From: Mycobacteriales bacterium
GTDB lineage: Bacteria; Actinomycetota; Actinomycetes; Mycobacteriales; SCTD01
DNA length: 64,000 nucleotides
Direction: 5' to 3'
NCBI GenBank assembly: GCA_035526225.1
Contig: DATLCV010000001.1
Span: 6,212 to 70,211 of the forward strand
Shown here in pieces: positions 9,551 to 58,189 of this stretch. Position numbers and translations under genes: made by a program. Below the pieces are notes generated by a model. It had not been told where the DNA came from. It saw only the letters and a program-made list of their open reading frames with translations, and did not search any database. Each line of letters starts with the position of its first letter. Positions within the stretch are counted from its first letter, which is position 1.

Positions 9551-11402
<1,852 letters not shown>

Positions 11403-11659
11403 GTCCAGCCCACCGTAGTCGACCGTCCCTGCTCAGCGCTCCCGGCGGCGGTCGCGCGGAGGTACGGCGAACAGGATCCCGGACAACGATCGGGGGCGGG
11501 GGCGCACGGTCCTCCGAGCGTCAAGGCGCGCGAGGTCCGCGAGCAGCGACGCGCGTCGGCGCCACCAGGTCGCGTCCTGCTCGGGCCCCTGCATGGAAGG
11601 GAGTCTGAGTCGCGCCAAGCAGACCCAAACCTGGGAGGACGAGCCCCGCGGAAGGAGGC

Positions 11660-11881
11660 ATGAAAGCACGCCGGAGCGGACACCCTCAGGACATGGGACA
11701 CGTCGCGACGGTGGAGACCACGAACGTCGACCCGCGGCCGTTCATGCCGCCGGAGGAAGCGGGCATCCAGCACCAGGCCACCTGCTCCGAGTGCGACTGG
11801 AAGGGCCCGGTGCACGTCGACTCGGAGAACTCCGAGCACGACGCGACGAAGGACGCCGAGCAGCACGAGCTCGAGACCTAG
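11660..11881 (+). CDS. Small hypothetical acidic protein (62-73 aa)
   Basis: High GC3. Contains one CxxC (CSECDW). The start is ambiguous: ATG 11660 sits right after GGAAGGAGG, and ATG 11693 is the alternative. No family recognised. Confidence 0.45.
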   Translation: MKARRSGHPQDMGHVATVETTNVDPRPFMPPEEAGIQHQATCSECDWKGPVHVDSENSEHDATKDAEQHELET

Positions 11882-43593: not shown

Positions 43594-45021
43594 ATGAGAG
43601 ACCGCCTGCGCGTCGTCCTGCCCGTGGTCGCCGCGCTCGCCATCGTCCTCGGCCTGGGCTGGTCGTGGTGGCAGAGCCTGGTGCCCGGCTCGTACTCGGT
43701 CATGGACATGGGCTACGAGGATCTCGGCGGCGGTCCCTCCATGGGCGGGATGCACCACGAGGGCGTCAGCGTCACTTCCCTCGTCGCTGACCCGGCTCGC
43801 GCCGCGGACGTCCGCGTCGCGCTCACGGCCCGCAAGGAGAGCTTCCGCCTGCCCACCGGCGAGCAGGTCGACGGCTACACCGTCAACGGCACCTCCCCCG
43901 GCCCGGTGATCCGGGCGGTCGAGGGCCAGCTCGTCGAGGTGGCTCTCACGAACGCCAACGTGACCGACGGCGTCACCTTGCACTGGCACGGGGTAGAGGT
44001 CCCCAACGCCGAGGACGGCGTGGCCGGTGTGACGCAGGACGCGGTCGCGCCGGGCAAGACCTACACCTACCGGTTCGTCGCGAGTCGCGCCGGCACGTTC
44101 TGGTACCACTCCCACCAGGTCTCGCACACGCAGGTGCGTCGCGGCCTCCTCGGGGCGCTGGTGGTCACGCCACGCGCCAGGTCACCGCTGCGCGACGTGC
44201 TCGCCCTCTCCCACGTGTACGGCGGGAAGGCGACCGTGAACGGCCACGTCGGCGCCGACGAGGTCCCGGCCCGACCCGGCGAGAAGGTGCGGGTGCGCCT
44301 GCTGAACACCGACAACGCCGCGGTGCGCGTATGGGTCAGCGGCTCGGCGTACCGGCTGCTGGCGGTGGACGGGTACGACCTGCACGGACCGACCGCGGTG
44401 ACCGACCGCGCCGTGCTCGTGACGGCCGGTGGCCGGGCCGACCTGGAGGTCACGGCGCCGGCGCGCGTGGAGCTCGGCGCGGCCGCGCTCGTCGTCGGCA
44501 CCGACGTGCCGAAGGGCACCCAGCCGACCAGCACGCTGGACCTGCTTGCCTACGGCACGCCCGCGCCCCTCGGGTTCGACCCGGACGACGCCGACCGGCG
44601 CTTCCGCTACTCCATCGGGCGCCGGCCGGGGTTCCTCGACGGCAAGCCCGGCCTGTGGTGGTCGATCAACGGCCACCTGTTCCCCGACGTGCCGATGTTC
44701 GTGGTGGCCGAGGGCGAGGTGGTGCGCATGACGATCAGCAACCACAGCGGCGCCGCCCACCCGATGCACCTGCACGGCCACCACGCCGTCGTGCTGTCCC
44801 GCGACGGCGAGCGTGCGACCGGGAGCCCCTGGTGGTCGGACTCGATCGAGGTCGGCTCCGGTCAGACCTACGAGATCGCTTTCGTGGCCGACAACCCGGG
44901 CGTCTGGATGGACCACTGCCACAACCTGCCGCACGCGGCGCAGGGCCTCGTTGCGCACCTGATGTACGAGGGCGTGACGACGCCCTTCCGCATCGGCCAC
45001 GAGGGCAACGAGCCCGAGTGA
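43594..45021 (+). CDS. Multicopper oxidase family protein
   Basis: All four copper-ligand motifs are present: HWHG, WYHSH, HPMHLHGH, HCHNLPHAAQG. There is an N-terminal membrane/signal helix. Confidence 0.9.
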   Translation: MRDRLRVVLPVVAALAIVLGLGWSWWQSLVPGSYSVMDMGYEDLGGGPSMGGMHHEGVSVTSLVADPARAADVRVALTARKESFRLPTGEQVDGYTVNGTSPGPVIRAVEGQLVEVALTNANVTDGVTLHWHGVEVPNAEDGVAGVTQDAVAPGKTYTYRFVASRAGTFWYHSHQVSHTQVRRGLLGALVVTPRARSPLRDVLALSHVYGGKATVNGHVGADEVPARPGEKVRVRLLNTDNAAVRVWVSGSAYRLLAVDGYDLHGPTAVTDRAVLVTAGGRADLEVTAPARVELGAAALVVGTDVPKGTQPTSTLDLLAYGTPAPLGFDPDDADRRFRYSIGRRPGFLDGKPGLWWSINGHLFPDVPMFVVAEGEVVRMTISNHSGAAHPMHLHGHHAVVLSRDGERATGSPWWSDSIEVGSGQTYEIAFVADNPGVWMDHCHNLPHAAQGLVAHLMYEGVTTPFRIGHEGNEPE

Positions 45022-45028
45022 CGGTGCC

Positions 45029-47125
45029 CTACGCGTACGGCGTGACCACCGGCAGCAGCGGCGTGACGACGTTGGGCGCGTACGCCGTGAGGACGTTCGT
45101 CGGGGCGCGCATCGGCACGGCGTAGCGCCACTGCTGGCCGTCGACCTCGTCCACCGGCACGCCGAGCGTGGCGTTGTCGCTGTCGTGGGTGACGAGGAAG
45201 TGCAGCCCGTGGCTGGCGTACGCCCCCTGGAACGGCGTCTTGCCGTGCGCCGGGTCGCACACGAGGGACGCGTACGGCGCGCCGTTGGCGGCGGCGTACC
45301 CGGCCTTGACCCGGTCGTCGGTGGAGGCCTCACCCGGCCACGGGCGCGCCACGGGGTCGTCGCCGGTGCCGTCGTCGAGGCAGGCGTCGTCGCGGTAGTA
45401 CGGCACCACGGCGGGGTTGGCCGCCGACGTGGCGCCCTTGAACTCGAAGACGTAGACGAGCCCGCCCGCGCGGCCCCTGCCCGCGATCTCCTCGGGCCGG
45501 TCGACCGCTGACGGCAGGTCGAACGACGGGTCGGGCAGGTCGAAGAAGGCGGGGTCGCCGTTGGGCAGCTCGTCGACCTGGCCGACGTCGTCGTTGAGGC
45601 CGTCGATGGGCACGCCCTCGGGCTTGGCGAGGTTGTAGTAGGTCGACGCGACCCGCTTGTTGTAGTCCCACGACGTGTAGAGCCCGTCGCTGGGGATCGG
45701 GTGCACACGCACGCGGTACCGGTAGGTGTCTGCGTCGCGGTAGTAGGTCTCGGTCTTCGTCACGTTGGTGCCGGAATCGCCGCCCCAGACCTCGCGGATG
45801 GCCCGGACCGGTCCCTGCCGCCAGCCGAGCAGCGCGGAGTTCGCCTCCCAGTTGACCTGCTCGTCCTCGAACCCGACGAGGGAGACGGTGGAGTCGGGGT
45901 TCTGCTGGAACGCACGGCCCTTCCAGCGGTCGATGAGGTCGGGGCCGTAGCGCGTGCCTGCGGGGGTGCAGTCCTTGACGTGCCCTGTCTTCTTGCCCTT
46001 CCCCTTGCCCTCGCTCCGGCCCCGCTCACGGCAGGCGACCTCGCGGGACGCCGCGTCGCGGACCTGGAAGCCCCGGACCATCCAGCGACCGGTGGCCGTG
46101 ACCTTGTACGTCGGGGTGGTGACCGTCATCGCATCGCGCGGGAAGCGGTCGGTGCTCGGCCGCGCGGCACCCGTCACCGGGTCGCACACCGTGCCCGGCA
46201 GGTTGGGGCCGTAGCCGGAGTTGCTGGTGCTCAGCGCCTCGGTGGACCCCACCGGGAACGAGCTGCGGTCCAGCCACCGGTCGGCGTCCGCGGCGCGCGT
46301 CATCTGCACGGCCGCGCTGCGGGCCGTGTACGACGACCCGCCGGCCTTCCGGAACAGGTAGAGGTAGCGGGTGGCTGCGGGGTCGAGCGGGTCCGCGACC
46401 GCGACGGTCTGGCCGTCGCTGGCCCCGGCCGGCGCAGGGGCTCCCGACGGAGCCTGCTTGCCCGCGTCACGAGCCTGCAGGGCGATCTCGTCGTCCTCGT
46501 CGACGCCGGCCACCGGGTCGGCCATCGCGTGCCGGTAGTCCGACAGCGACTCCTGAGGCCCGAGCGTGACGACTCCCGAGGCGATCGCGGCCCTCACCTC
46601 GGCGTCGCTCAGGGCGTAGCGCGCCTTGCAGGTGCCGAAGACCTTCTTCCAGGCCTCCTCACCGGCGGTGTGCCGGGTGGGGCCCCAGGCGTAGGTGAGC
46701 TCCTGGTCGGTGCCGCTGTAGAAGGCGAAGTCGCTGCGGGCGTTGGCGAGGAAGTGCGGGAACCGCTCGTCGACCTGGACGGGCACCTCGCGCCACGACG
46801 AGCCGGTCCACGCGTAGGCCGCGACCTCGTCCACGGGCACGCCCGACAGGGGGGCCGGCGCCAGGGTCCCGTTGTGCGCGGTCCGGATGGCCAGCTTCGG
46901 GTCGAGCTGGTCGCCGTACTCGGCCGTGATCCCGCTGGGGTACGGCTGCGCGACGCCCTGTACCGCCGGGACGCTCCAGCCGGCGAGCTGGGCGCCGGTG
47001 AGGACGACCGGGGCGGCGTCGCGGTCCACGCTCAGCACCGGGCCCGCGCCGCGGGGGGCGGCGAGGGCGGTGCCCGCCAGCAAGCCGCACAGGACGGGCA
47101 GGACGAGGTACCGGGGGGAGGTCAC
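45029..47125 (-). CDS. Large secreted hypothetical protein (698 aa)
   Basis: Signal peptide MTSPRYLVLPVLCGLLAGTALAAP. High GC3 throughout. No family recognised by eye. Confidence 0.7.
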   Translation of the reverse strand: MTSPRYLVLPVLCGLLAGTALAAPRGAGPVLSVDRDAAPVVLTGAQLAGWSVPAVQGVAQPYPSGITAEYGDQLDPKLAIRTAHNGTLAPAPLSGVPVDEVAAYAWTGSSWREVPVQVDERFPHFLANARSDFAFYSGTDQELTYAWGPTRHTAGEEAWKKVFGTCKARYALSDAEVRAAIASGVVTLGPQESLSDYRHAMADPVAGVDEDDEIALQARDAGKQAPSGAPAPAGASDGQTVAVADPLDPAATRYLYLFRKAGGSSYTARSAAVQMTRAADADRWLDRSSFPVGSTEALSTSNSGYGPNLPGTVCDPVTGAARPSTDRFPRDAMTVTTPTYKVTATGRWMVRGFQVRDAASREVACRERGRSEGKGKGKKTGHVKDCTPAGTRYGPDLIDRWKGRAFQQNPDSTVSLVGFEDEQVNWEANSALLGWRQGPVRAIREVWGGDSGTNVTKTETYYRDADTYRYRVRVHPIPSDGLYTSWDYNKRVASTYYNLAKPEGVPIDGLNDDVGQVDELPNGDPAFFDLPDPSFDLPSAVDRPEEIAGRGRAGGLVYVFEFKGATSAANPAVVPYYRDDACLDDGTGDDPVARPWPGEASTDDRVKAGYAAANGAPYASLVCDPAHGKTPFQGAYASHGLHFLVTHDSDNATLGVPVDEVDGQQWRYAVPMRAPTNVLTAYAPNVVTPLLPVVTPYA

Positions 47126-47292
47126 GCGTTACCCCTTCGACACCTGCCGTGACTGTTCCTGCTCACCGTCCGGGAGCGTGTCCGTCACCTCCCGGTGTGC
47201 CCGGTTGGTCCGTTCGGCTCAGCAGGAACACGTTCCACCTCCCGACGCAAGGTTCGTCCAGCCGGCCCAGCCGCAGAGGGAGCGCACACGCC

Positions 47293-49227
47293 TTGTCGAC
47301 GACAGAGGGCATCAGCCGCAGGCAGGTGCTGAAGGGCACCGCCGCAACCGCCGTCGGCATCGGGCTCGCCAAGGCCGCCGTTGGCAGCACCGGCCCGGCG
47401 TACGCCGCGACCGACCTGGTCTACGACGTGGTCGTCGTGGGCGCCGGCGCGGCAGGCTTCTCCGCAGCGCTCGGGGTGGTCCGGCAGGACCCGAGGGCCC
47501 GGGTCGTCATCGTCGACGCCCGACCGACGTACGGCGGGACGACGTACCGCTCCGGCGGTCGGCTGTGGGTCCCGAACAACGCGGACATGCGCGCCGCCGG
47601 GCTCAAGGACCCGCGCGAGGAGGCCATCGCGTACATGGCGCGGCTGGCGCACCCCGAGGCCTACAAGCCGCGTGCCACGCGGTTCGGCCTCCAGCGCCGG
47701 CACTACGCCCAGCTGGGGGCCTACTACGACTTCGGCGCCGACATGCTGGACTACTACCGCCGGACCAAGATCATGCCGTGGCACGCCGAGACGGGCGTCT
47801 TCCTGCCCGGCGTCGCGGACCCGCTCGGGCTGGCCGGCAAGTTCGCTCCCGACTACCACCCGGAGCTCGAGGAGAACGTGCCCAAGGCGGGGCGCAGCAT
47901 CATGCCCGAGCTGTTCGACCCCACGGGCACCATGGCCAGCGACCTCGGCCGCACCACGACGGTGGGCAACTTCGGCTCCTCCGTCTACGGCCCCGATGTC
48001 ATCGAGTGGCTGAACCTCGCCGCACGGCAGGCCGGGATCGACGTCCACCTGGGGACCCGCATGGTGGACCTGGTCATGACGAAGACCCTCACCGGCTCCG
48101 CGGTCACCGGGATCAAGACCATGACGGTGGTGGACGGCGGCACAACCCTCAGCGAGCCCGTCGGCTATCTCGAGGTGCCGATCGGCCGCACCTACGCCGC
48201 CCGTCGAGGCGTCATCGTCACCGCGGGCGGCTTCTCCAAGAACAACGCGAAGCTCGCTGCCAGCTTCACCGGCTCCAAGGCCCTCACCGGTGGCGGCTGC
48301 GCGGTCGTCAGCGCCGTGGGGGACCTCACGGACATGGCCGCGAAGTACGGGTTCATGACCGAGCACATGGACCAGGCGTGGTTCGTGCAGAACATCTACG
48401 AGCAGTACAAGAGCGACCCGAACAGCACCCTGTCGCCCAACTACCTGCTGTTCCAGGCCTACTGGCTCGCCGGCGACTCGATGATCGTGGTGAACCGCCG
48501 CGGCCAGCGCGTGACGAACGAGAAGGCCAACTACAACGACCGCACGCGCGCGCACTTCAGCGCCGAGAACCGGTTCCTGTTCAGCGTGTTCGACAAGCAC
48601 TCCTACGACAGCTTCGTCGGCCTCGGGGGCCAGATCCTGCCCATCGGGTCCTCGGTGATCGGCCCGGCGAAGAGCCTGCCGGAGCTCGCCGGCCTGCTCG
48701 CGGAGCGGCTCAAGCAGTACCCGGAGACCGGGGGCCTGGCGTCCGACTTCACCGCCGGGCTGGCCGCGACGGTGCAGCGGTTCAACGGGTTCGCGCGCAC
48801 CGGCGTCGATGAGGACTTCCACCGCGGCGAGTCCTCCATCGACGTGTGGTGGCACGCCTTCTGCCTCGCCTTCCACGGCTACGACAGCTCGGCCGCGCCG
48901 GGCGTGGGCAGCAAGGACTGCATCAGCTCCAACACCGACGAGAACGGCACGCCGTACCCGAACGTCACCATGCGACCGCTCGCCGGCGAGTACTACGCGG
49001 TGATCCTCAGCTCCGGGCTGCAGGACACCAAGGGCGGGCCGGCGATCGACGAGCTCGGGCGCATCCTGGACACCAACGGGGTGCCCGTGGCCGGCCTGTA
49101 CGGCGCAGGCAACTGCATCGCGTCGCCTGCCGGCCAGGGCTACTGGGGCGCGGGCGGCACGCTGGGTCCGGCGACCGTCTTCGGCCACATCGCCGGCCGG
49201 CACGCCGCCAGGAGGCTCTCGCTCTAG
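47293..49227 (+). CDS. Tat-exported FAD-binding dehydrogenase (FAD_binding_2, fumarate reductase/KstD-like)
   Basis: Twin-arginine signal SRRQVLKGTAATAVGIGLA, dinucleotide fold VVVVGAGAAGFSAAL, and C-terminal GLYGAGN. The chosen start is a TTG at 47293 after AGAGGGAG; the start is uncertain. Confidence 0.75.
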   Translation: MSTTEGISRRQVLKGTAATAVGIGLAKAAVGSTGPAYAATDLVYDVVVVGAGAAGFSAALGVVRQDPRARVVIVDARPTYGGTTYRSGGRLWVPNNADMRAAGLKDPREEAIAYMARLAHPEAYKPRATRFGLQRRHYAQLGAYYDFGADMLDYYRRTKIMPWHAETGVFLPGVADPLGLAGKFAPDYHPELEENVPKAGRSIMPELFDPTGTMASDLGRTTTVGNFGSSVYGPDVIEWLNLAARQAGIDVHLGTRMVDLVMTKTLTGSAVTGIKTMTVVDGGTTLSEPVGYLEVPIGRTYAARRGVIVTAGGFSKNNAKLAASFTGSKALTGGGCAVVSAVGDLTDMAAKYGFMTEHMDQAWFVQNIYEQYKSDPNSTLSPNYLLFQAYWLAGDSMIVVNRRGQRVTNEKANYNDRTRAHFSAENRFLFSVFDKHSYDSFVGLGGQILPIGSSVIGPAKSLPELAGLLAERLKQYPETGGLASDFTAGLAATVQRFNGFARTGVDEDFHRGESSIDVWWHAFCLAFHGYDSSAAPGVGSKDCISSNTDENGTPYPNVTMRPLAGEYYAVILSSGLQDTKGGPAIDELGRILDTNGVPVAGLYGAGNCIASPAGQGYWGAGGTLGPATVFGHIAGRHAARRLSL

Positions 49228-49254: not shown

Positions 49255-51381
49255 GTGGTGTCCGCGACCGACGTGCTGCTCGAGGGCCGAGCCCCCGCGC
49301 CGGATCCCGCGTCGGCCTCACCAGGGCGGGGCTTTCGCCCTGACGTCGAGGGGCTGCGCGCCGTCGCTGTGCTGCTCGTCGTCGCGTTCCACGCCGGCAT
49401 CGGGGTCGTCAGCGGCGGCTTCGTGGGCGTGGACGTCTTCTTCGTCATCTCGGGCTTCCTCATCACCGGCCTGCTCGTGGAGGAGCAGCGCCGCAGCGGC
49501 ACCGTCTCCCTCCGGGGCTTCTACGCCCGTCGCATCCGCCGCCTGCTGCCGCTGGGCACCGTCGTCCTGCTCGCGACCACGGTCGCCACGGCACTCGCCC
49601 TGCCCGCGATCGACCAGCCGAAGGTCGGTGGTGAGGCGACCGCCGCGGCGCTGTGGTGGGCCAACTGGCACTTCGCCGGCTCGGCGACGCAGTACATGGC
49701 CGACGTCGACCTCAGCCCGGTCCTGCACTACTGGTCGCTGAGCGTCGAAGAGCAGTTCTACGTCGTCTGGCCGCTGCTCATCCTGCTGGTCACCGCAGGT
49801 CGACGCGGCCTGTCCTTCCGCGTACGGCGAGCACGGCTCGCGCTGGCCCTCCTCGTGCTCGGCGCCGCGTCCTTCGTCCTCTCCGCGACCACGACGGCCA
49901 GCGCCGGGCCCTGGGCCTACTTCGGACTGCACACCCGCGCCTGGGAGCTCGCCGCGGGTGGCCTGCTGGCACTCGGCCTGCCGCTGGTGACGAGGGTGCC
50001 GCGGGCTGCGGCGGCGCTGGCGGGCTGGATCGGCCTGACCCTCGTCGCCGGTTCGGCGGTGCTGCTCGACCGGGCGACGGTGTTCCCGGGCACGGCTGCG
50101 GCCCTGCCGGTCGGCGGGACCGTGCTGCTGCTCGCCGCCGGGGCGGTCACGACCGGCGGTGTGTCCCGGCTCATGAGCACGCCCTGGCTCACCTACGTCG
50201 GGCGGATCTCCTACGGGTGGTACCTGTGGCACTGGCCGTGCCTGGTGATCACCCGTGCCGTCTGGGGTCACAGCTCGGCGGATCCCGAGCTGGGCTCCGC
50301 GTCCGGGCCCGGGCCGTTGCGCACCACCGCCGCCGTCGGGGTCTCGTTCCTGCTCGCTGCCGTGACCTACCGGCTCGTCGAGCGGCCGGTGCGCGAGTCG
50401 CGCACGCTGGCGCGGTCCCGCAACCTCTCGCTGGCCATGGGTGCCCTGCTGGTCGCCGTCTCGGTCACGGGCGCCCAGCTGCTCCTCGGCTCGCCCTCGA
50501 AGGACTCCGGGCTGGCGGTGAGCGCCGTCCCGACCGCTCCCGGGCAGACGGCGCCGGTGAAGGTGTCGCTGCAGACGCCTGAGCAGGCGCGCAAGGACAC
50601 CGGCATCGACGCCCGGTGCTTCGTCGACTTCGCGACGCGCTCGCCTGACCCGGCTTGCCGCTTCGGGGACCGGCAGGGCAGCAAGGTGATCGTGCTCATC
50701 GGCGACTCGCACGCGAACTCGTGGTTCCCGGCGGTGCGGCGCGTCGCGGAGCAGCAGCACTGGCAGCTCTACTACTGGGCGAAGGCCGCGTGCGCGTACG
50801 CCGATGTCCGGCAGTTCACGACGATCTTCAACCGCGAGTACACCGAGTGCAACGACTACCGCGCAGCGGTCCTGGAGCGGATCCGGGCACTCCCCCGTGT
50901 CGACGCGGTGCTCGTCGGGCGCAACTACTCCTTCCCCCGGATCCTCATGGACGATCAGGGCGAGACCCCCGGTGGGGCCGCCGCGCTGCGGTTGTGGCGC
51001 GAGGGGGCGCGGCGCTCCTTCGCCTCGCTCGCGACGCTGACCCCGCGCGTGGTGGTCCTGCGCGACACCCCGCGGCCCGGTGGCGACGTCCCCGGCTGCC
51101 TGTCGAAGAACACCGCCCACCCGCAGAGCTGCGCCTTTCCGCAGAACGGGCACACCCACCTCGACCACAGCCTGGTCGACGAGGAGGAGCAGGCCCTGCC
51201 GCCGGGCGACACCGTGCGCTACATCGACCTCACGGAGACGATCTGCCCGGCCGACCCCTGCTCGGTCCTGAGCCCGACCGGCGCGATCCTGTACCGCGAC
51301 CTGCACCACCTGACCGCCCGCTTCTCCCGTGAGCTCGCCCCGGCGCTCACGGCCGCGCTGCTGCCCATCGTGCGGCGCTAG
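49255..51381 (+). CDS. Acyltransferase-3 membrane domain fused to an SGNH domain (OafA/OatA-like O-acyltransferase)
   Basis: N-terminal LRAVAVLLVVAFH...VDVFFVISGFLIT followed by ~10 TM helices. The C-terminal SGNH domain has VLIGDSHA. Confidence 0.85.
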   Translation: MVSATDVLLEGRAPAPDPASASPGRGFRPDVEGLRAVAVLLVVAFHAGIGVVSGGFVGVDVFFVISGFLITGLLVEEQRRSGTVSLRGFYARRIRRLLPLGTVVLLATTVATALALPAIDQPKVGGEATAAALWWANWHFAGSATQYMADVDLSPVLHYWSLSVEEQFYVVWPLLILLVTAGRRGLSFRVRRARLALALLVLGAASFVLSATTTASAGPWAYFGLHTRAWELAAGGLLALGLPLVTRVPRAAAALAGWIGLTLVAGSAVLLDRATVFPGTAAALPVGGTVLLLAAGAVTTGGVSRLMSTPWLTYVGRISYGWYLWHWPCLVITRAVWGHSSADPELGSASGPGPLRTTAAVGVSFLLAAVTYRLVERPVRESRTLARSRNLSLAMGALLVAVSVTGAQLLLGSPSKDSGLAVSAVPTAPGQTAPVKVSLQTPEQARKDTGIDARCFVDFATRSPDPACRFGDRQGSKVIVLIGDSHANSWFPAVRRVAEQQHWQLYYWAKAACAYADVRQFTTIFNREYTECNDYRAAVLERIRALPRVDAVLVGRNYSFPRILMDDQGETPGGAAALRLWREGARRSFASLATLTPRVVVLRDTPRPGGDVPGCLSKNTAHPQSCAFPQNGHTHLDHSLVDEEEQALPPGDTVRYIDLTETICPADPCSVLSPTGAILYRDLHHLTARFSRELAPALTAALLPIVRR

Positions 51382-51385
51382 CCCC

Positions 51386-53044
51386 GTGCCGCACCGGCCG
51401 GACCCGGCTCCTCCCGCCCTGGTCGAGCTGCGCCTGCTCGACGGGCCCAACCTGTACTTCGCCCGGGCGGCCTGCAAGGTGGTGCTCGACGTGTCAGGGC
51501 TCCTCCTGCTGCCGGAGGAGGAGCTGCGCGACCGCGCCGCCGCCTGGGGCACCTCGCTGGGTCGCGGCGGCACTGCCGGCTCCGAGGTCCGGGCCCGGGC
51601 GGTCTCCCGGGTGCTCGCCGCGGTCACCCGGCGACTCGCGGCGACCGCCGGAGTCGCCCGGCTCGCGGTCCGCAGCCGCCCGGGACCCGAGCCGGCGCAG
51701 CTGACGATCGCCTTTCCCTGGCGACGGCGCGAGCTCGCCCGGGCGCTCGGGGTGGCTCTCGCCGAGGCCGTCGACGGGACCGTCGGCGACCTGTCACAAG
51801 CCCCACACGGCACCGGCCCCACGACACCGCGCCCGCGCATCCCCGTGGTCGCGGTGACTGGCACCAACGGCAAGACGACCACGACCCGGCTCATCGCCCA
51901 CATGTCGCGCTGCGCCGGCAACGTCACCGGCTGGACCTCCACCGACGGCGTCTACGTCGACGGCGTGGCCGTCGAAGAGGGCGACTGGAGCGGGTACGGC
52001 GGAGCCGGTCGCGTCCTCGGGGACCGCCGGGTGCAGCTCGCGGTGCTCGAGACCGCGCGCGGCGGGCTGCTGCTGCGCGGCGCGGGCACGCGGCACAACG
52101 ACGTCTCCGTCGTCACCAACGTCGGGGCCGACCACCTGGGGCTGCAGGGCATCCACACCGTCGACGACCTCGCAGAGGTGAAGGCCGTCGTGCCGCGCCT
52201 GACCCGCGAGGGCGGTTGGTGCGTCGTCAACGCCCAGGACCCCCGGGTGCTCGCCATGCGATCCGCGTCGAAGGGCCGCCCCTGGGCCTTCTCGCTCGAC
52301 CCCGACGCACCCGGGGTGCGCGCGGTCCTCGCGGAAGGGGGTCGCGCCACGAGCGTGCTCGACGAGCAGGTCGTGCTGCTGGACGGCGAGGGTGGCGTCG
52401 ACCCGCTGGTCCCGCTCGCCGACGTGCCCATGACGCTGGCGGGGCTGTCACGCCACGACGTCGCCAACGCCCTCGCTGCCGCGTCCGCCGGGCTCGCCGT
52501 CGGCCTGCCCCGCCACGCGGTGGTGCAGGGCTTGCGCACGTTCACCGCTGAGCAGAACCCCGGGCGGATGAACCTCTGGGACGTGCGTGGGTGCGTGGTC
52601 GTGCTCGACCTGGCGCACAACGAGGACAGCCTGCAGGCGCTGCTCGCCGTCGTCCGCGGGCTGCGTGTACCGGGTGGGCGGGTGGTGACCGTGCTCGGCA
52701 CCGGTGGGGACCGCCTCGACGAGCAGCTGCGCGAGCTCGGGCACCTCGCCCGCCACGGGTCGGACGAGGTCGTGCTCGCGCTGAAGAGCCGCTACCTGCG
52801 CGGGCGATCACCCGAGGACATGCTGGCGCAGCTCCGCGCGGGCGCCGGAGACGCGCCTGCGCACGACGACGAGGTCACCGCCCTGCGCTCGGTGCTGCTC
52901 GACCGGCGTCCCGAGGACGCCGTGGCCTTCCTGTGCCACCAGGACAGGCCCGCCTGCGAGCAGGTGCTGCGAGAAGCGGGCGGCCACCCGATGTCCGTCG
53001 AGGAGGTCCGGGCGCGGGTCCTCAGAGGTCGGGGTCGCCCGTAG
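51386..53044 (+). CDS. Cyanophycin-synthetase-like protein with an M (Mur-ligase-like) domain only and no ATP-grasp domain
   Basis: IPVVAVTGTNGKTTTT, LETARGG, NVGADHLG and DLAHNEDS align closely with the CphA M domain encoded opposite. The N-terminal ~150 aa weakly resemble the CphA N domain (LLDGPNLYF). The GTG at 51386 lies 4 nt after the acyltransferase stop. Confidence 0.8.
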   Translation: MPHRPDPAPPALVELRLLDGPNLYFARAACKVVLDVSGLLLLPEEELRDRAAAWGTSLGRGGTAGSEVRARAVSRVLAAVTRRLAATAGVARLAVRSRPGPEPAQLTIAFPWRRRELARALGVALAEAVDGTVGDLSQAPHGTGPTTPRPRIPVVAVTGTNGKTTTTRLIAHMSRCAGNVTGWTSTDGVYVDGVAVEEGDWSGYGGAGRVLGDRRVQLAVLETARGGLLLRGAGTRHNDVSVVTNVGADHLGLQGIHTVDDLAEVKAVVPRLTREGGWCVVNAQDPRVLAMRSASKGRPWAFSLDPDAPGVRAVLAEGGRATSVLDEQVVLLDGEGGVDPLVPLADVPMTLAGLSRHDVANALAAASAGLAVGLPRHAVVQGLRTFTAEQNPGRMNLWDVRGCVVVLDLAHNEDSLQALLAVVRGLRVPGGRVVTVLGTGGDRLDEQLRELGHLARHGSDEVVLALKSRYLRGRSPEDMLAQLRAGAGDAPAHDDEVTALRSVLLDRRPEDAVAFLCHQDRPACEQVLREAGGHPMSVEEVRARVLRGRGRP

Positions 53045-55739
53045 CGGTGTCCGCGCGCGTGCCGGCCTGCGCTCTGTGGGACCGCTCCTGGATCTCCGAC
53101 CAGACCGCCGCGTGGCTGTCCGCGCACAGCACGACCAGGTCTCCCGGGCCCGCCAGGTCGAGCGCCCGGCGGGTCGCCTCGATCTCGTCCAGCACCACCT
53201 CGACCGACTGCACCCGCCCCCCCGAGCGAGCACCCTCGGCCACCAGCCCCGCCGTCTCGCCCGCCGGCCGTCCGCGCAGCCGCTTGTCCTCGCGCACCAC
53301 GATGATGTCGAAGTGCTCGGAGGCCACCTCGCCCAGCTCGCGCATGTCCTCGTCCCGGCGGTCACCGGCCGTGCTCACCACACCGATGCGGCGGTGCCGC
53401 AGCAGGTCGTCCGGTGCGTTGTCGGCGATCCGGTCGACGAAGTCGCCCAGAAGGCGCATGCCGGCAGCGTTGTGGCAGTAGTCGACGACGACGGTGATGC
53501 CGTCGATCTCGGTGACGTTGAGACGGCCGGGCGCGAGGTAGTAGGAGGTCGTGAACGTCCGCAGGCCCTGCCGGATGTCGTGCAGCGGCGCACCTGCCGC
53601 GAAGGCTGCCGCGGCGGCGGCGAGAGCGTTCTGCACGTTCATCAGCGCCTTGCCGCCGAAGGTCGCCGGCAGCAGGTGCGTCCAGGCGAGCTGCATCGAC
53701 CGGCGGCCGTGCCGGATCACGATCATGTCCCCGAGCTCGCCGCGCTCGAGCACCACCGCGCGTCCGCCGCGGCGGCAGTGGTCGTCGACGCGCGTCCACT
53801 CCGGGCTGCCGGGCAGGCTCGTCGTGAACCACACCACCTGCCCGCTGCACGCCCGTGACATCCGCGCCACCAGCGGGTCATCGGCGTTGAGCACCGCGAA
53901 GCCGTCGCGCGGCACCGCTTCGACGACGACCTGCTTCACCGCAGCCAGCTGCTCGACGGTGTCGATGCCCGCCATGCCGAGGTGGTCGGCAGCGACGTTG
54001 AGGACGACACCGACGTCGTTGCGCTCGTAGCCCAGCCCCTCACGCAGCAGTCCCCCGCGCGCCACCTCGAAGACCGCGAAGTCGACCCGCGGGTTCTGCA
54101 GCACCATGCGCGCGCTCTTCGGCCCGCTGGCGTCGGCGCGGATGACGAGCCGCTCGTCGATGACGATGCCGTCGGTGGAGGTCATGCCGACCTTGCGCCC
54201 GAGTCCCTTGAAGATGTGGGAGATCATCCGCGAGGTCGTGGTCTTCCCGTTGGTGCCGGTCACGGCGACGATCGGGATGCGGCTCGGCGCGCCGGGTGGG
54301 AACAGCAGGTCGATGACGGGCTTCGCGACGAACTGCGGCTCCCCCACCGTCGGGTGGGTGTGCATGCGGAAACCGGGGGCGGCGTTGACCTCGACGATCC
54401 CGCCGCCGGCCTCGCGCACGGGGTCGGTGATGTCGACGGCCATGAAGTCGATGCCGGCGACGTCGAGCCCGACGACCCGGGCGGCCTCCTCGGCGATCTC
54501 GACGTTGTCGGGGTGAGCCTCGTAGGTCCGGTCGATGGAGATGCCGCCGGTGCTCATGTTCGCCGTGAGCGTCAGCATGACCGTCGTACCGGGGGGCGGG
54601 ACGGTGTCGCGGGCGAGGCCCTGCGTCGCGAGGAGCTCGTCGGCCGCGTCGTCGAGCGCGATCCGGGTGAGCACCTTCTCGTGACCGACCCCGCGACGCG
54701 GGTCGGCGTTGGTGATCTCGACGAGCTCGGCAACGGTGTGCCCGCCGTCGCCGACGACGTGCGCGGGGACGCGCTCCGCGACGGCCACCATCCGCCCGCC
54801 GACGACGAGGAAGCGGTAGTCGCTTCCCAACAGGTAGCTCTCGACCACGACCCAGCCCCGCCGCGACTCGCTCTTGGCGACGTCGAACGCCCGCGTCAGG
54901 GCGTCGGCGTCGGCGAGGTTCAGCCCGACGCCACGGCCGTGGTTGCCGTCGGCAGGCTTGACGACGACGGGGTAGCCGATGCGGGCTGCGACCTCGAGCG
55001 CCCCGTCGAGGGTCCGCACCGCCTTCGACTGCGGCACCGGCAGACCGGCGGCTCCCAGCAGCTGGAGGGTCATCTCCTTGTCGCCCGCGATGTCGACCGC
55101 CAGCGAGGAGGTCTGCGAGGTCATGGTGGCGCGGATGCGCTTGGCGTGGACGCCCTGGCCGAGCTGCACGAGGGACGCGGAGTTCAAGCGCATCCAGGGG
55201 ATGTCACGGCTCACCGCCTCGTCCACCAGTGCCTGCGTGGACGGGCCGAACGCCGCGCGCTGGGCCAGCAGCACGATCTCCTCGATGGCCACCCGGGGGT
55301 CGAAGTCCTCCTCGGCCTGCACGAGGTGGTTGACCAGCCGCACCGCGAGCGTGCCCGCCGCGGCGCCGACGGTCTCGTCCGCGTAGGCGTAGATGACGTC
55401 GTACACGCCGGGGCGACCAGGGGTGCCACGGGTCTTGCCCCTGCTGACGTACGCGCCGGTGAGCCGCTGCAGCTCGAGCGCGACGTGCTCGGAGACGTGC
55501 CCTAGCCATGTCCCCTCCTGGAGCCGCTCCGCGAAACCCCCCGCCTTGCGGCGCGAGCAGCTGTGCTCACCGACGCCGGGCAGCAGCGCGAGCAGCGCCT
55601 CGGTGAAGCCCGGGATGCGGTCGGTGGGGAACTCCTCGAGCGAGCCCAGGTCGACCTGCAAGTGGATCGCCGGCCCGTAGGACCAGGTGTTGGGCCCGCG
55701 GTACACCCGGGTCTGCAACACCTTCAGGTCAGGCTTCAC
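53022..55739 (-). CDS. cphA: Cyanophycin synthetase (N, ATP-grasp and Mur-ligase-like domains)
   Basis: 905 aa. N-terminus VYRGPNTWS. ATP-grasp region (YPVVVKPADGNHGRGV...). M domain IPIVAVTGTNGKTTTS, NVAADHLG, DYCHNAAG. Confidence 0.95.
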   Translation of the reverse strand: MKPDLKVLQTRVYRGPNTWSYGPAIHLQVDLGSLEEFPTDRIPGFTEALLALLPGVGEHSCSRRKAGGFAERLQEGTWLGHVSEHVALELQRLTGAYVSRGKTRGTPGRPGVYDVIYAYADETVGAAAGTLAVRLVNHLVQAEEDFDPRVAIEEIVLLAQRAAFGPSTQALVDEAVSRDIPWMRLNSASLVQLGQGVHAKRIRATMTSQTSSLAVDIAGDKEMTLQLLGAAGLPVPQSKAVRTLDGALEVAARIGYPVVVKPADGNHGRGVGLNLADADALTRAFDVAKSESRRGWVVVESYLLGSDYRFLVVGGRMVAVAERVPAHVVGDGGHTVAELVEITNADPRRGVGHEKVLTRIALDDAADELLATQGLARDTVPPPGTTVMLTLTANMSTGGISIDRTYEAHPDNVEIAEEAARVVGLDVAGIDFMAVDITDPVREAGGGIVEVNAAPGFRMHTHPTVGEPQFVAKPVIDLLFPPGAPSRIPIVAVTGTNGKTTTSRMISHIFKGLGRKVGMTSTDGIVIDERLVIRADASGPKSARMVLQNPRVDFAVFEVARGGLLREGLGYERNDVGVVLNVAADHLGMAGIDTVEQLAAVKQVVVEAVPRDGFAVLNADDPLVARMSRACSGQVVWFTTSLPGSPEWTRVDDHCRRGGRAVVLERGELGDMIVIRHGRRSMQLAWTHLLPATFGGKALMNVQNALAAAAAAFAAGAPLHDIRQGLRTFTTSYYLAPGRLNVTEIDGITVVVDYCHNAAGMRLLGDFVDRIADNAPDDLLRHRRIGVVSTAGDRRDEDMRELGEVASEHFDIIVVREDKRLRGRPAGETAGLVAEGARSGGRVQSVEVVLDEIEATRRALDLAGPGDLVVLCADSHAAVWSEIQERSHRAQAGTRADTATGDPDL

Positions 55740-56650
55740 GACGTCCTCCGGGTGCGCCGCGCGGGCACGTCACCGAGCGCTCCCTCGACCGCGATGAGCC
55801 GGTCCAGCGGTACGTCGGGCTGCTGGCCCTTCTCCTTCAGCTGGTCCGGGCGGCCGCCGGCCCCGGGCAGCAGAACGCGGTCCGCGAGGTCGAAGCGGGC
55901 GCCGGCAGGCAGGGAGTGCAGCACGACGCCACTGACCAGCAGCGGTGCGGTCCCGGCCGCGGTGTCGACGTTCGAGGTCATGCCACTGCCGTCGAACAGC
56001 GTGACGGCACCCTTGCCGACAACCTCCAGGACGTCGCCGGTCACGACGGCGGCGGTGTCCTCGTCGACACCGAGCCCCAGCAGGTGCGGGGCGTGGGAGA
56101 CGAGCGTGAGCAACCGGCCGTACCGGCCGCGCTCGTCGAAGTGCTGATCGATGACCAGGCCGGGCAGCAGCCCGAGGCCGGCGGACATCTGCGCCATCCG
56201 CATCCGCGGGGTCGAGCCGACGCGGCCGAAGGCGACCATGTGCTCGCTCTGCACGCTCGCACCGGCGCTCGTCCCGCCGACGACGGCTCCGCGCTCGTGG
56301 GCGGCACGGATGGCGCGGCCGAAGGGCGTGCCCGCGACGACGCCGCTCAGGGTCGACTGGTTTCCGCCCGTCATGAAGACGCCCGTCACGTCCTCGAGCT
56401 GGGAGACGAAGGCCGGGGCGGCGGCGTCCTTGCGCGTGCGCGGCCGAGGCGCGCGCAGGTCCTTCACACCCAGCCCGGTGAAGGCGGCCCGGTAGGCCTC
56501 GACGATCTCGTCACCGAGCGAGCTGGCCGTGGGGATGACCGCGATGCGCGCCTGAGGGCCGCCGGCGAGTCGCACGAACCGGCTCAGGACCTGCCGGGCA
56601 CCCGTCCTGTCCTCGGCCCCGCCGATGATCATGAGTGGGCCGCCCGTCAT
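55736..56650 (-). CDS. cphB: Cyanophycinase (peptidase S51)
   Basis: MIIGGAEDR, FMTGGNQ, nucleophile GGTSAGAS, IDQHF. 4-nt overlap with the cphA start. There is a ~40-aa C-terminal extension. Confidence 0.92.
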   Translation of the reverse strand: MTGGPLMIIGGAEDRTGARQVLSRFVRLAGGPQARIAVIPTASSLGDEIVEAYRAAFTGLGVKDLRAPRPRTRKDAAAPAFVSQLEDVTGVFMTGGNQSTLSGVVAGTPFGRAIRAAHERGAVVGGTSAGASVQSEHMVAFGRVGSTPRMRMAQMSAGLGLLPGLVIDQHFDERGRYGRLLTLVSHAPHLLGLGVDEDTAAVVTGDVLEVVGKGAVTLFDGSGMTSNVDTAAGTAPLLVSGVVLHSLPAGARFDLADRVLLPGAGGRPDQLKEKGQQPDVPLDRLIAVEGALGDVPARRTRRTS

Positions 56651-56674: not shown

Positions 56675-58189
56675 TCAGGCGTCGTGCGGCTCCAACGGGT
56701 GGACGGCCGGGCCGTTCAGCACCTCACCGGTGAAGGCGAACCGCGAGCCGTGGCACGGGCAGTCCCAGCTGCGCTCGCCGTCGTTCCACCGCACGGTGCA
56801 GCCCAGGTGGGTGCAACGCGCCGAGACGCAGTGCAGGGTCCCCTCCTCGTCACGGAAGGCGGCGGTCCGCCCCTCCGCACGCAGGAAGACTCCCGCCTCT
56901 CCCGGCAGCAGCTCGTGCATCCCGGTCAGGCCAGGCCGGAGCATCCCGCCGACGAGCTCACGCGCGACGTCGGCGTTCTCCTTCACCGCTTTCGAGGCCG
57001 AGGCGCGCAGCGTGCTGCGGTCCGGCGCGTACAGCTCTGCGTACGGGTTCGCCCGGCCCAGCACCAGGTCGGCGAGCACGAGCCCCGACAGCGTGCCGTT
57101 CGTCATGCCCCAGGCGTTGAAGCCGGTCGCGACCCAGGTGTGCTCGCCCGCCAGCGGGAGCTGTCCGATGTAGGGCAGTCGGTCGACGCTGGAGGTGTCC
57201 TGCGTGGACCAGCGGTGCACCTGGTCCGCACCGGGGAACCGCTCCTGCGTCCAGGCCGCGAGCCCGTCGTACCGCTCCTCGACCGAGACGTCCTTGCCGG
57301 TCTTGTACTGGCCGCCGGTGACGATGAGGAGCCGCTTGCCGTCGCGGTAGGGCGCGGTGCGAACCGAGTGCGTGCCACCCTCCTCCGAGCCGGTGCTGAT
57401 GGCCATCACGCCCGGGTCGCGGTCTGCGTCGATCGTCGCGGCGACGACCACGTCCCGGTACGCCGAGAGCCGGGCGAACAGCAGCCCCCGGTCGAGGAAC
57501 GGGTAGTGCGTCGCCACGACGACGTCCTCACAGGACAGGTCACCGTGGTCGGTCTGGACGACGAGCCCGTCTTCCGCGTCCGACACGTCCAGGGCACGGG
57601 TCTGCTCCACGACCTCACCGCCGGCAGCGACGAACGCGTCCGCGAGGGCGAGCAGGTACTGGCGGGGGTGGAACTGGAGCTGGTCCGGCAGCAGCGCGCC
57701 TGCCCTGATGCCCCACGGCAGTCCGCTGGAGGTGACGTGCTCCATCGGGAGGCCGGCGCGGCGGGCCGCCTCAACCTCCTCGTTCACCGTCTCGGTGTCG
57801 TCGAGGCTCTCGGTGTAGACCAGCGACGGCACCGGCTCCAGCTCGCAGCTCGCGGCACCGGCGGTGTCTCGCAGCCAGTCGAGCGCGCGGCACTGCGACT
57901 CGGCGTACAGGCGTGCCGCATCCGCGCCGTGCCGCTTGGCGAGGTCGGCGTACACCAGGTTGTGCTGCACCGTGACCTTCGCCGTCGTGTAGCCGCTGAC
58001 ACCACGGGCAAGGCGGTCCGCCTCCACGAGGGTCACCTGCCGGCCCGCGCGGGCGAGCAGCAGCGCTGTGGTCAGCCCGGCGATGCCACCGCCCAGCACG
58101 GCGACGCCTGTGCGGGCGTCTCCGGCGAGGGCGGGAAAGTCGGTGTCGGGGGTGGAGGCCACCCACCAGGACGTGTTGTCGGAGGTCAT
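56675..58189 (-). CDS. FAD-dependent (DAO-family) oxidoreductase fused to a C-terminal Rieske [2Fe-2S] domain
   Basis: VAVLGGGIAGLTTA dinucleotide fold and Rieske motifs CTHLGC...CPCHGS. Ends 24 nt upstream of cphB. Confidence 0.85.
   Translation of the reverse strand: MTSDNTSWWVASTPDTDFPALAGDARTGVAVLGGGIAGLTTALLLARAGRQVTLVEADRLARGVSGYTTAKVTVQHNLVYADLAKRHGADAARLYAESQCRALDWLRDTAGAASCELEPVPSLVYTESLDDTETVNEEVEAARRAGLPMEHVTSSGLPWGIRAGALLPDQLQFHPRQYLLALADAFVAAGGEVVEQTRALDVSDAEDGLVVQTDHGDLSCEDVVVATHYPFLDRGLLFARLSAYRDVVVAATIDADRDPGVMAISTGSEEGGTHSVRTAPYRDGKRLLIVTGGQYKTGKDVSVEERYDGLAAWTQERFPGADQVHRWSTQDTSSVDRLPYIGQLPLAGEHTWVATGFNAWGMTNGTLSGLVLADLVLGRANPYAELYAPDRSTLRASASKAVKENADVARELVGGMLRPGLTGMHELLPGEAGVFLRAEGRTAAFRDEEGTLHCVSARCTHLGCTVRWNDGERSWDCPCHGSRFAFTGEVLNGPAVHPLEPHDA

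Follow-up and report, generated by a model that had tools for sequence, protein, structure and literature searches.

A cyanophycin synthetase paralogue convergent with cphA1

The stretch analyzed here (the window) comprises 64,000 nucleotides from a Mycobacteriales bacterium (assembly GCA_035526225.1, contig DATLCV010000001.1, positions 6,212 to 70,211 of the forward strand), with a G+C content of ~73% throughout; it derives from a soil metagenome. On its + strand lies a gene for a paralogue of cyanophycin synthetase (CphA) in which a diverged N-terminal (N) domain is joined to a Mur-ligase-like M domain, and the ATP-grasp (G) domain that separates the two in CphA1 is absent; the product, called here the N-M protein, is probably an undescribed helper enzyme of cyanophycin, a nitrogen-storage polymer. 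The gene is convergent with a full-length cphA1, and the cyanophycinase gene cphB lies upstream of cphA1 on the same strand, overlapping it by 4 nt. The open reading frame (ORF) ending at 53044 has two possible starts, 51329 (GTG) or 51386; because homologues from other genomes begin MPHRPD in the alignment, we take the GTG at 51386, which sits 4 nt past the TAG of the upstream gene, as the start of a product of 552 amino acids (aa). The features of the locus are as follows.

51386..53044, + strand: N-M-only CphA paralogue gene, 552 aa, GTG start, stop at 53042-53044 (ORF list and homologue alignment)
51413..51781, + strand: diverged CphA-type N domain by fold, aa ~10-132, predicted beta-beta-alpha-alpha-alpha-beta-beta-alpha (AlphaFold2, hhalign, Foldseek)
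51833..52540, + strand: Mcore, aa ~150-385, with P-loop GTNGKTT at aa 159-165, Mg ligands T186 and E222, and catalytic D249-H250 (ADHLG)
52541..53041, + strand: Mlid, aa ~386-552, with ATP-contacting R394 and H411, A418, and family-specific K467
53022..53044, no strand: 23 nt shared by the N-M gene and cphA1 where their 3' ends converge, from ORF coordinates
53022..55739, - strand: cphA1, encoding the complete 905-aa cyanophycin synthetase 1 with its N, G, and M domains, in convergent orientation to the N-M gene
55736..56650, - strand: cphB, cyanophycinase, 304 aa (TIGR02069 E=1e-70; Pfam Peptidase_S51)

The first-pass annotation of this DNA, made from the sequence by eye, had taken the convergent neighbour for a bona fide CphA, and so it is: TIGR02068 scores 1154 bits, and Pfam finds Cyanophycin_syn, 7 ATP-grasp families, Mur_ligase_M, and Mur_ligase_C.

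The M domain is kept and the G domain is absent

In CphA the G domain, an ATP-grasp domain, extends the aspartate backbone and the M domain attaches the side chain. The N-M protein carries Mur_ligase_M (PF08245; aa 157-368, 62.6 bits, cutoff 24) and Mur_ligase_C (PF02875; aa 393-514, 54.0 bits, cutoff 28.4), both above the gathering threshold, together with P-loop and Mg-binding residues, and thus belongs to the Mur ligase superfamily; none of the ATP-grasp Pfam families could be found in it at E<=0.01, and its first 174 aa matched no Pfam family of any kind at E<=10. Within the superfamily its closest relatives are CphA M domains. The NCBIfam cyanophycin synthetase model TIGR02068 gives E=1e-103, its match being confined to the M-domain part of the model (positions 476-858 of 862), and the equivalog cutoffs are missed (348 bits vs 850 for TIGR02068, 323 vs 877 for NF010623). 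MurE models come next at ~1e-29 to 1e-32, the best specific Mur-type model being MurE TIGR01085 (100 bits vs a cutoff of 257), and all equivalog models for MurC-F, Mpl, MurT, and FolC fall below their cutoffs. BLASTP aligns aa 170-493 with aa 487-824 of the neighbouring CphA1 at 42% identity (E=4e-55), and a sequence search of the PDB returns SuCphA1 from Synechocystis UTEX2470 first (E=7e-67, residues 482-812), followed by Trichodesmium, Acinetobacter, and Tatumella CphA1 and then by MurE-like proteins at 2e-22.

Structure prediction agrees. An AlphaFold2 model built on an alignment of 78 family members has a mean predicted local distance difference test score (pLDDT) of 93.8 and a predicted template modelling score (pTM) of 0.92; in a Foldseek search of the PDB with the full model CphA1 chains take all the top places (E~1e-36) and MurE follows (E~1e-20), and the N domain, which ends at about aa 130, leads straight to the P-loop strand at aa 154. 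In the N-M protein a complete M domain (Mcore plus Mlid) thus follows directly on a diverged N domain of CphA type, with no G domain, and the protein is therefore not expected to extend an aspartate backbone. The first-pass annotation had proposed just this, an M domain kept and the ATP-grasp domain missing; the short motif pairs by which it matched the protein to the adjacent CphA all recur in the BLASTP alignment, and profile and structure searches alike group the protein with CphA M domains and not with MurC-F or FolC.

Three known systems bracket this architecture. With CphA1 (SuCphA1, PDB 7LG5/7LGQ; Trichodesmium TeCphA1, 7WAC-7WAF) the N-M protein has the N-domain fold and the M domain in common, the published ATP, Mg, and catalytic residues of the M site being identical at an overall M-domain identity of 41-42%, but it lacks both the ~325-aa ATP-grasp G domain and the Cx19HxxEH peptidase site of CphA1, and so combines M-domain and N-fold features of the CphA1 equivalog class with the absence of the G domain and a score below the class cutoff. 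CphA2 (Stanieria/Gloeothece, PDB 8FXH/8FXI) has an active G domain and a truncated, inactive M domain, and polymerizes beta-Asp-Arg (PMC10273328). CphA2 and the N-M protein are both reduced CphA-family members whose N domain is non-catalytic and has no peptidase motif, both are encoded in addition to CphA1, and the N domain of the N-M protein also matches CphA2 structurally; but CphA2 keeps the G domain whereas the N-M protein keeps a complete M domain without G, a mirror-image reduction, already pointed out in the first-pass annotation and borne out by PMC10273328, that places the N-M protein outside CphA2. CphA2 is moreover cyanobacterial, whereas the N-M family is found in Actinomycetota. 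Finally, the Mur ligases (MurC-F, Mpl, MurT, FolC/FPGS, CapB) share the ATP-dependent, amide-forming Mur_ligase_M plus Mur_ligase_C core with its P-loop, Mg, and DH motifs, but their similarity to the N-M protein (E ~1e-20 to 1e-32) is far lower than that of CphA (1e-67 to 1e-103), and in place of the Mur-type nucleotide-sugar-binding N-terminal domain the N-M protein has a CphA-type N domain.

The residues of the M site are invariant

The M site of CphA1 has been dissected in two enzymes. In TeCphA1 the P-loop residues K499 and T500, the Mg-chelating T522 and E558, and the adenine-stacking N497 line the ATP site, R731 and H748 of Mlid touch the phosphates, and A755 gates closure of Mlid (PMC9427784); in SuCphA1 the M domain is inactivated by mutation of the Asp-His pair D585/H586 (PMC9262961). 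Alignment to SuCphA1 places N497, K499, T500, T522, and E558 at N161, K163, T164, T186, and E222 of the N-M protein, and D585, H586, R731, H748, and A755 at D249, H250, R394, H411, and A418. All of these are invariant in the 78 family members, which are 53-88% identical to the window protein and whose alignment has 60-plus invariant columns; the ATP and catalytic motifs, intact to the eye at first pass, are intact throughout the family. The position of CphA1 F692 is occupied by an aromatic residue or His.

The partner CphA1s keep the same M-site residues, with 113 identically conserved columns. Because the M site of the partner is intact, the N-M protein would represent an additional M site rather than a replacement, and we reject the idea that it stands in for a dead M domain in its partner.

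The N-terminal domain is a diverged CphA N domain

Within the N-M family, conservation is strong over the first ~135 aa (ELRxLxGPNxYF, RLAVRxRP, AxPW), but this region is not detected by Pfam PF18921, and a phmmer search with the 150 aa of the N domain against 1.84 billion representative proteins gave 182 matches, all to the family itself and none to a ~900-aa CphA1; most of these are short, probably partial gene calls, and the full-length ones are ~550-585 aa. Kinship with CphA is therefore visible only by profile and fold. By profile, hhalign aligns aa 10-54 of the family with aa 5-49 of the CphA1 N domains from the same genomes (79% probability, E=1.6e-5, 45 columns), and this stretch of conserved similarity covers a loop whose counterpart in SuCphA1 rests on a hydrophobic patch of the M domain (supplement of PMC9262961). 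By fold, the N domain modelled alone (pLDDT 90.2) finds CphA1 or CphA2 chains as its top 13 Foldseek matches in the PDB, with template modelling (TM) scores of 0.47-0.57 over 123-154 aligned columns; the probability is 1.00 down to the eighth match, 0.80-0.99 from the ninth to the thirteenth, and 0.14 for the one after. As modelled, then, the N-terminal domain is a diverged CphA N domain by fold only, in keeping with the weak resemblance noted at first pass. A cryptic ATP-grasp domain in the N-terminal 150 aa is rejected, as no Pfam family matches there at E<=10 and the fold matches only CphA N domains.

In CphA1 a Cx19HxxEH metallopeptidase motif lets the N domain generate its own primers (PMC9262961). 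We looked for this motif in 81 members of the N-M family and found it in none (0/81), whereas it is complete in all 68 partner CphA1s examined, compared with a published figure of 83% for non-redundant CphA1s generally. In the window CphA1 the motif occupies aa 61-85 (55481-55557, - strand): CSRRKAGGFAERLQEGTWLGHVSEH.

These observations bear on an alternative in which the N-M protein would be a dipeptide or primer synthetase, making beta-Asp-Arg from Asp and Arg or decorating Asp-Asp, and so feeding the slow first steps of de novo synthesis by CphA1. An intact catalytic set and tight linkage with cphA1 are what one would cite in its favour. Yet the complete motif in 68/68 partner CphA1s confers primer independence (PMC9262961), CphA1 does not accept free beta-Asp-Arg as a primer (supplement of PMC9262961), and the strong conservation and basic charge of the N domain point to a polymer as its ligand rather than a single amino acid; we consider a primer synthetase unlikely.

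Divergence from the M domain of CphA1

The M domain of the N-M protein is 41% identical to that of SuCphA1 and 42% identical to that of the neighbouring CphA1, whereas the latter two are 51% identical to each other. By these sequence identities the N-M family appears to branch outside the CphA1 M domains compared and to be either old or fast-evolving, and a recent tandem duplication of the neighbouring cphA1 is rejected on the same grounds.

In 52 alignment columns the N-M family and the actinobacterial CphA1s are fixed for different residues, and in 20 of the 52 SuCphA1 agrees with the actinobacterial CphA1s, marking the change as specific to the N-M family. These changes (CphA1 to N-M) include E529 to G193, L623 to R287, M640 to R304, L681 to D346, Y746 to L409, and E800 to K467. 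L409 lies two residues before the Mlid His, and K467 replaces a Glu (E817/E800) present in all CphA1s compared, within an Mlid segment that reads E-D-x-x-x-RGR in CphA1 and K-S-R-Y-L-RGR in the N-M family. The segment may resemble the DNPR-motif region of MurE, which recognizes the incoming amino acid. The surface differs as well: net charges in the N-M family compared with the CphA1s of the same genomes are +6 (the family median) vs -4 for the N domain, -4 vs +4 for Mcore, and -11 vs -4 for Mlid. With pocket and surface charge remodelled around an ATP site conserved to the residue, we infer that the preferred acceptor, the incoming amino acid, or both may differ from those of the CphA1 M domain.

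The same charges could be read in another way, as those of a non-catalytic or regulatory partner that binds to CphA1 or to granules of cyanophycin, with the basic N domain lying against the polymer or the acidic N and G domains of CphA1 and ATP binding serving as a switch, so as to modulate synthesis, chain length, or access of CphB. The inversion relative to CphA1 of the same genome (N and Mcore) fits such docking, as does the conserved N-domain stretch that packs against the M domain, and CphA2 sets a precedent in that its inactive M domain and non-catalytic N domain are kept for structure (PMC10273328). Inactive relatives typically lose their catalytic residues, however, and the M domain of CphA2 is truncated as well as inactive, whereas in the N-M family the ATP, Mg, and acyl-phosphate residues, D249 and H250 among them, are invariant across 78 sequences. 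A purely regulatory protein is, we think, quite unlikely.

Distribution in Actinomycetota

Among 5.8 billion protein clusters, a search recovered over 100 relatives that are full-length (520-585 aa), carry both Pfam domains, and show 53-88% identity; the source databases name them "Mur ligase family protein" or, misleadingly, "cyanophycin synthetase". When a single genome was scanned for each GTDB species, at least 563 genomes held a relative. The best 80 carriers belong to Nocardioides, Kribbella, Marmoricola, Jiangellales, Propionibacteriales, and metagenome-assembled genomes (MAGs) of Mycobacteriales/Frankiales type.

An assembly artefact, or a decaying second cphA that has lost its G domain, would account for the initial impression of a "truncated" cphA and for nothing else. 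The data refute it: the 520-585-aa architecture recurs in over 100 protein clusters and in the genomes of at least 563 species, the family retains its 60-plus invariant columns, the structural model is compact as well as confident, and 93% of sampled words of the N-M gene are present in contigs of an independent run. We therefore reject the assembly deletion that the first-pass annotation had raised as a worry, and give an artefact or pseudogene of any kind a negligible probability.

Two individual members deserve mention. P0163 (745 aa) has an extra C-terminal TPR_5 domain at aa 622-740, either a real fusion or read-through into a neighbour; apart from this tail and gene-call artefacts, no informative domain fusions were found among family members. 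L076 (CALRVO020000040.1), labelled as a Sphingomonas paucimobilis MAG, holds a typical actinobacterial N-M/cphA1/cphB locus at ~50% identity, and is probably a mis-binned contig.

Synteny with cphA1 and cphB

To survey synteny, 80 loci around the best relatives were searched with the N, G, and M domains of the window CphA1 and with CphB. Among the 67 loci having at least 6 kb of downstream sequence, 66 have downstream, on the other strand, a cphA1 that includes the G domain, 65 have cphB, and none has a cphA upstream of the N-M gene. Measured at 74 loci, the gap that separates the N-M gene from cphA at their 3' ends has a median of ~900 bp and extremes of -16 and 7193 bp. The convergent 23-nt overlap reported at first pass is thus correct in its coordinates but incidental to the window genome; the adjoining cphA1 itself, for which a wider survey had been suggested, is the rule.

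All-against-all clustering of ORFs from the 80 loci revealed no other neighbour conserved across lineages, nor any split CphA with a separately encoded ATP-grasp partner, a candidate we reject. The genes upstream in Nocardioidaceae resemble, judging from their translations, FabI/FabG reductases and MoaA, and differ in the window (an AT3-SGNH acyltransferase) and in two other loci, L081 and L082; those inserted before cphA are variable (a membrane protein and cupin-like, Dyp-type-peroxidase-like, and MFS proteins), each found in at most 8 of 80 loci. In L081 (13241-14140) and L082 (11692-13563), both on long nanopore-derived MAG contigs, the gene calls for the downstream cphA are fragmentary (299 aa and 623 aa, respectively), which probably reflects frameshift errors rather than real truncations.

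Linkage is also where a third alternative has to be weighed, that of a Mur-type ligase, descended from a CphA M domain, that has left cyanophycin for some other acceptor (cell wall, capsule, or a small-molecule carboxylate) and whose adjacency to cphA is historical. It could invoke the 20 family-specific fixed changes, two of which remove an acidic residue that CphA1 conserves, the position of the N-M gene outside the cphB-cphA transcription unit with up to 7 kb of unrelated genes between, and the one family member without a cphA nearby (L056). Against these stand i) the persistence of cphA1-cphB linkage in 66/67 loci from lineages as far apart as 50% identity, while every other neighbour changes; ii) an N domain of CphA type, retained and conserved, whose CphA1 counterpart walls the cyanophycin groove on one side; and iii) the absence of a Mur-type N-terminal nucleotide-sugar domain. 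On this evidence an acceptor unrelated to cyanophycin is improbable.

The AT3-SGNH acyltransferase gene (Acyl_transf_3 plus SGNH, 708 aa; 49255-51381, + strand) ends 4 nt before the N-M GTG, a spacing that suggests possible co-transcription in the window genome, and the pairing was not seen in other lineages. Directly beyond cphB, at 56675-58189 (- strand), lies a gene for a 504-aa FAD-dependent oxidoreductase (DAO) with a C-terminal Rieske [2Fe-2S] domain, not conserved beside cphB in the other loci examined. Elsewhere in the window, a 698-aa ORF at 45029-47125 (- strand) has no Pfam match at E<=1e-5 and is flanked by genes for a multicopper oxidase (43594-45021) and an FAD-binding oxidoreductase (47149-49227).

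A putative side-chain ligase acting in trans

What we infer of the catalysis, substrate, and biological role of the N-M protein is the following. It would be a stand-alone CphA side-chain module, unable to extend an aspartate backbone, that acts in trans on chains made by the neighbouring CphA1: it would use ATP to phosphorylate a beta-carboxylate, link an amino acid to that group by an isopeptide bond, and so add side chains at the ends of cyanophycin chains, as an end-completing or side-chain-diversifying enzyme. The domains that the N-M protein retains are precisely the ones that build the M site of CphA1. To the proposal that the N-M protein is an active, trans-acting, ATP-dependent beta-aspartyl side-chain ligase on chains from the adjacent CphA1, for which the domain architecture, the predicted fold, the invariant catalytic residues, the close linkage to cphA1-cphB, and the family-specific substitutions speak, we would assign a probability of about one half.

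Several points weigh against this proposal. The linkage is positional rather than operonic, since the N-M gene is convergent with cphB-cphA and is not co-transcribed with them. One locus, L056, encodes an intact 564-aa member (9992-11686) with neither cphA1 nor cphB in its full 10-kb downstream flank, although it is the only locus with such a flank where both are missing. The putative change in specificity is argued from the positions of substitutions in the sequence. An enzyme acting at the chain end once per G-domain step must compete with the M domain that CphA1 carries in cis, and the benefit is not obvious. Finally, among sequencing runs containing the N-M sequence we found no RNA runs, only DNA runs from a soil metagenome.

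The proposal of a side-chain ligase acting in trans can be carried a step further. N-M-only proteins might constitute a third class of the CphA family, "CphA3", trans-acting side-chain ligases across Actinomycetota with a specificity unlike that of the CphA1 M domain, in that the amino acid they attach would be another one, or their acceptor would be more anionic and under-decorated, or both. Taken together, these claims are tentative and on balance doubtful. We found no description of a CphA without a G domain in the full-text literature, where subscription journals are sparsely covered, so that an earlier mention is possible.

Implications for cyanophycin metabolism

Cyanophycin synthesis has so far been described with two types of enzyme, CphA1 (N-G-M) and CphA2 (N-G-truncated M), and a conserved, apparently active N-M paralogue would give the hundreds of soil Actinomycetota that carry it beside cphA1-cphB a third. 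The label "cyanophycin synthetase" that many databases attach to N-M proteins over-predicts the capacity to make polymer. As a side-chain module standing alone, the N-M protein would be a natural experiment which asks whether the M reaction can be uncoupled from growth of the backbone, and it raises the questions of what determines side-chain specificity and whether the polymers of actinobacteria vary in composition; it would also give bioengineers a ready-made, soluble, single-activity ligase with which to decorate poly-Asp or cyanophycin with amino acids of their choice. If the "CphA3" proposal is true, actinobacterial cyanophycin would be built by two enzymes, and may differ chemically from the textbook Asp-Arg polymer.

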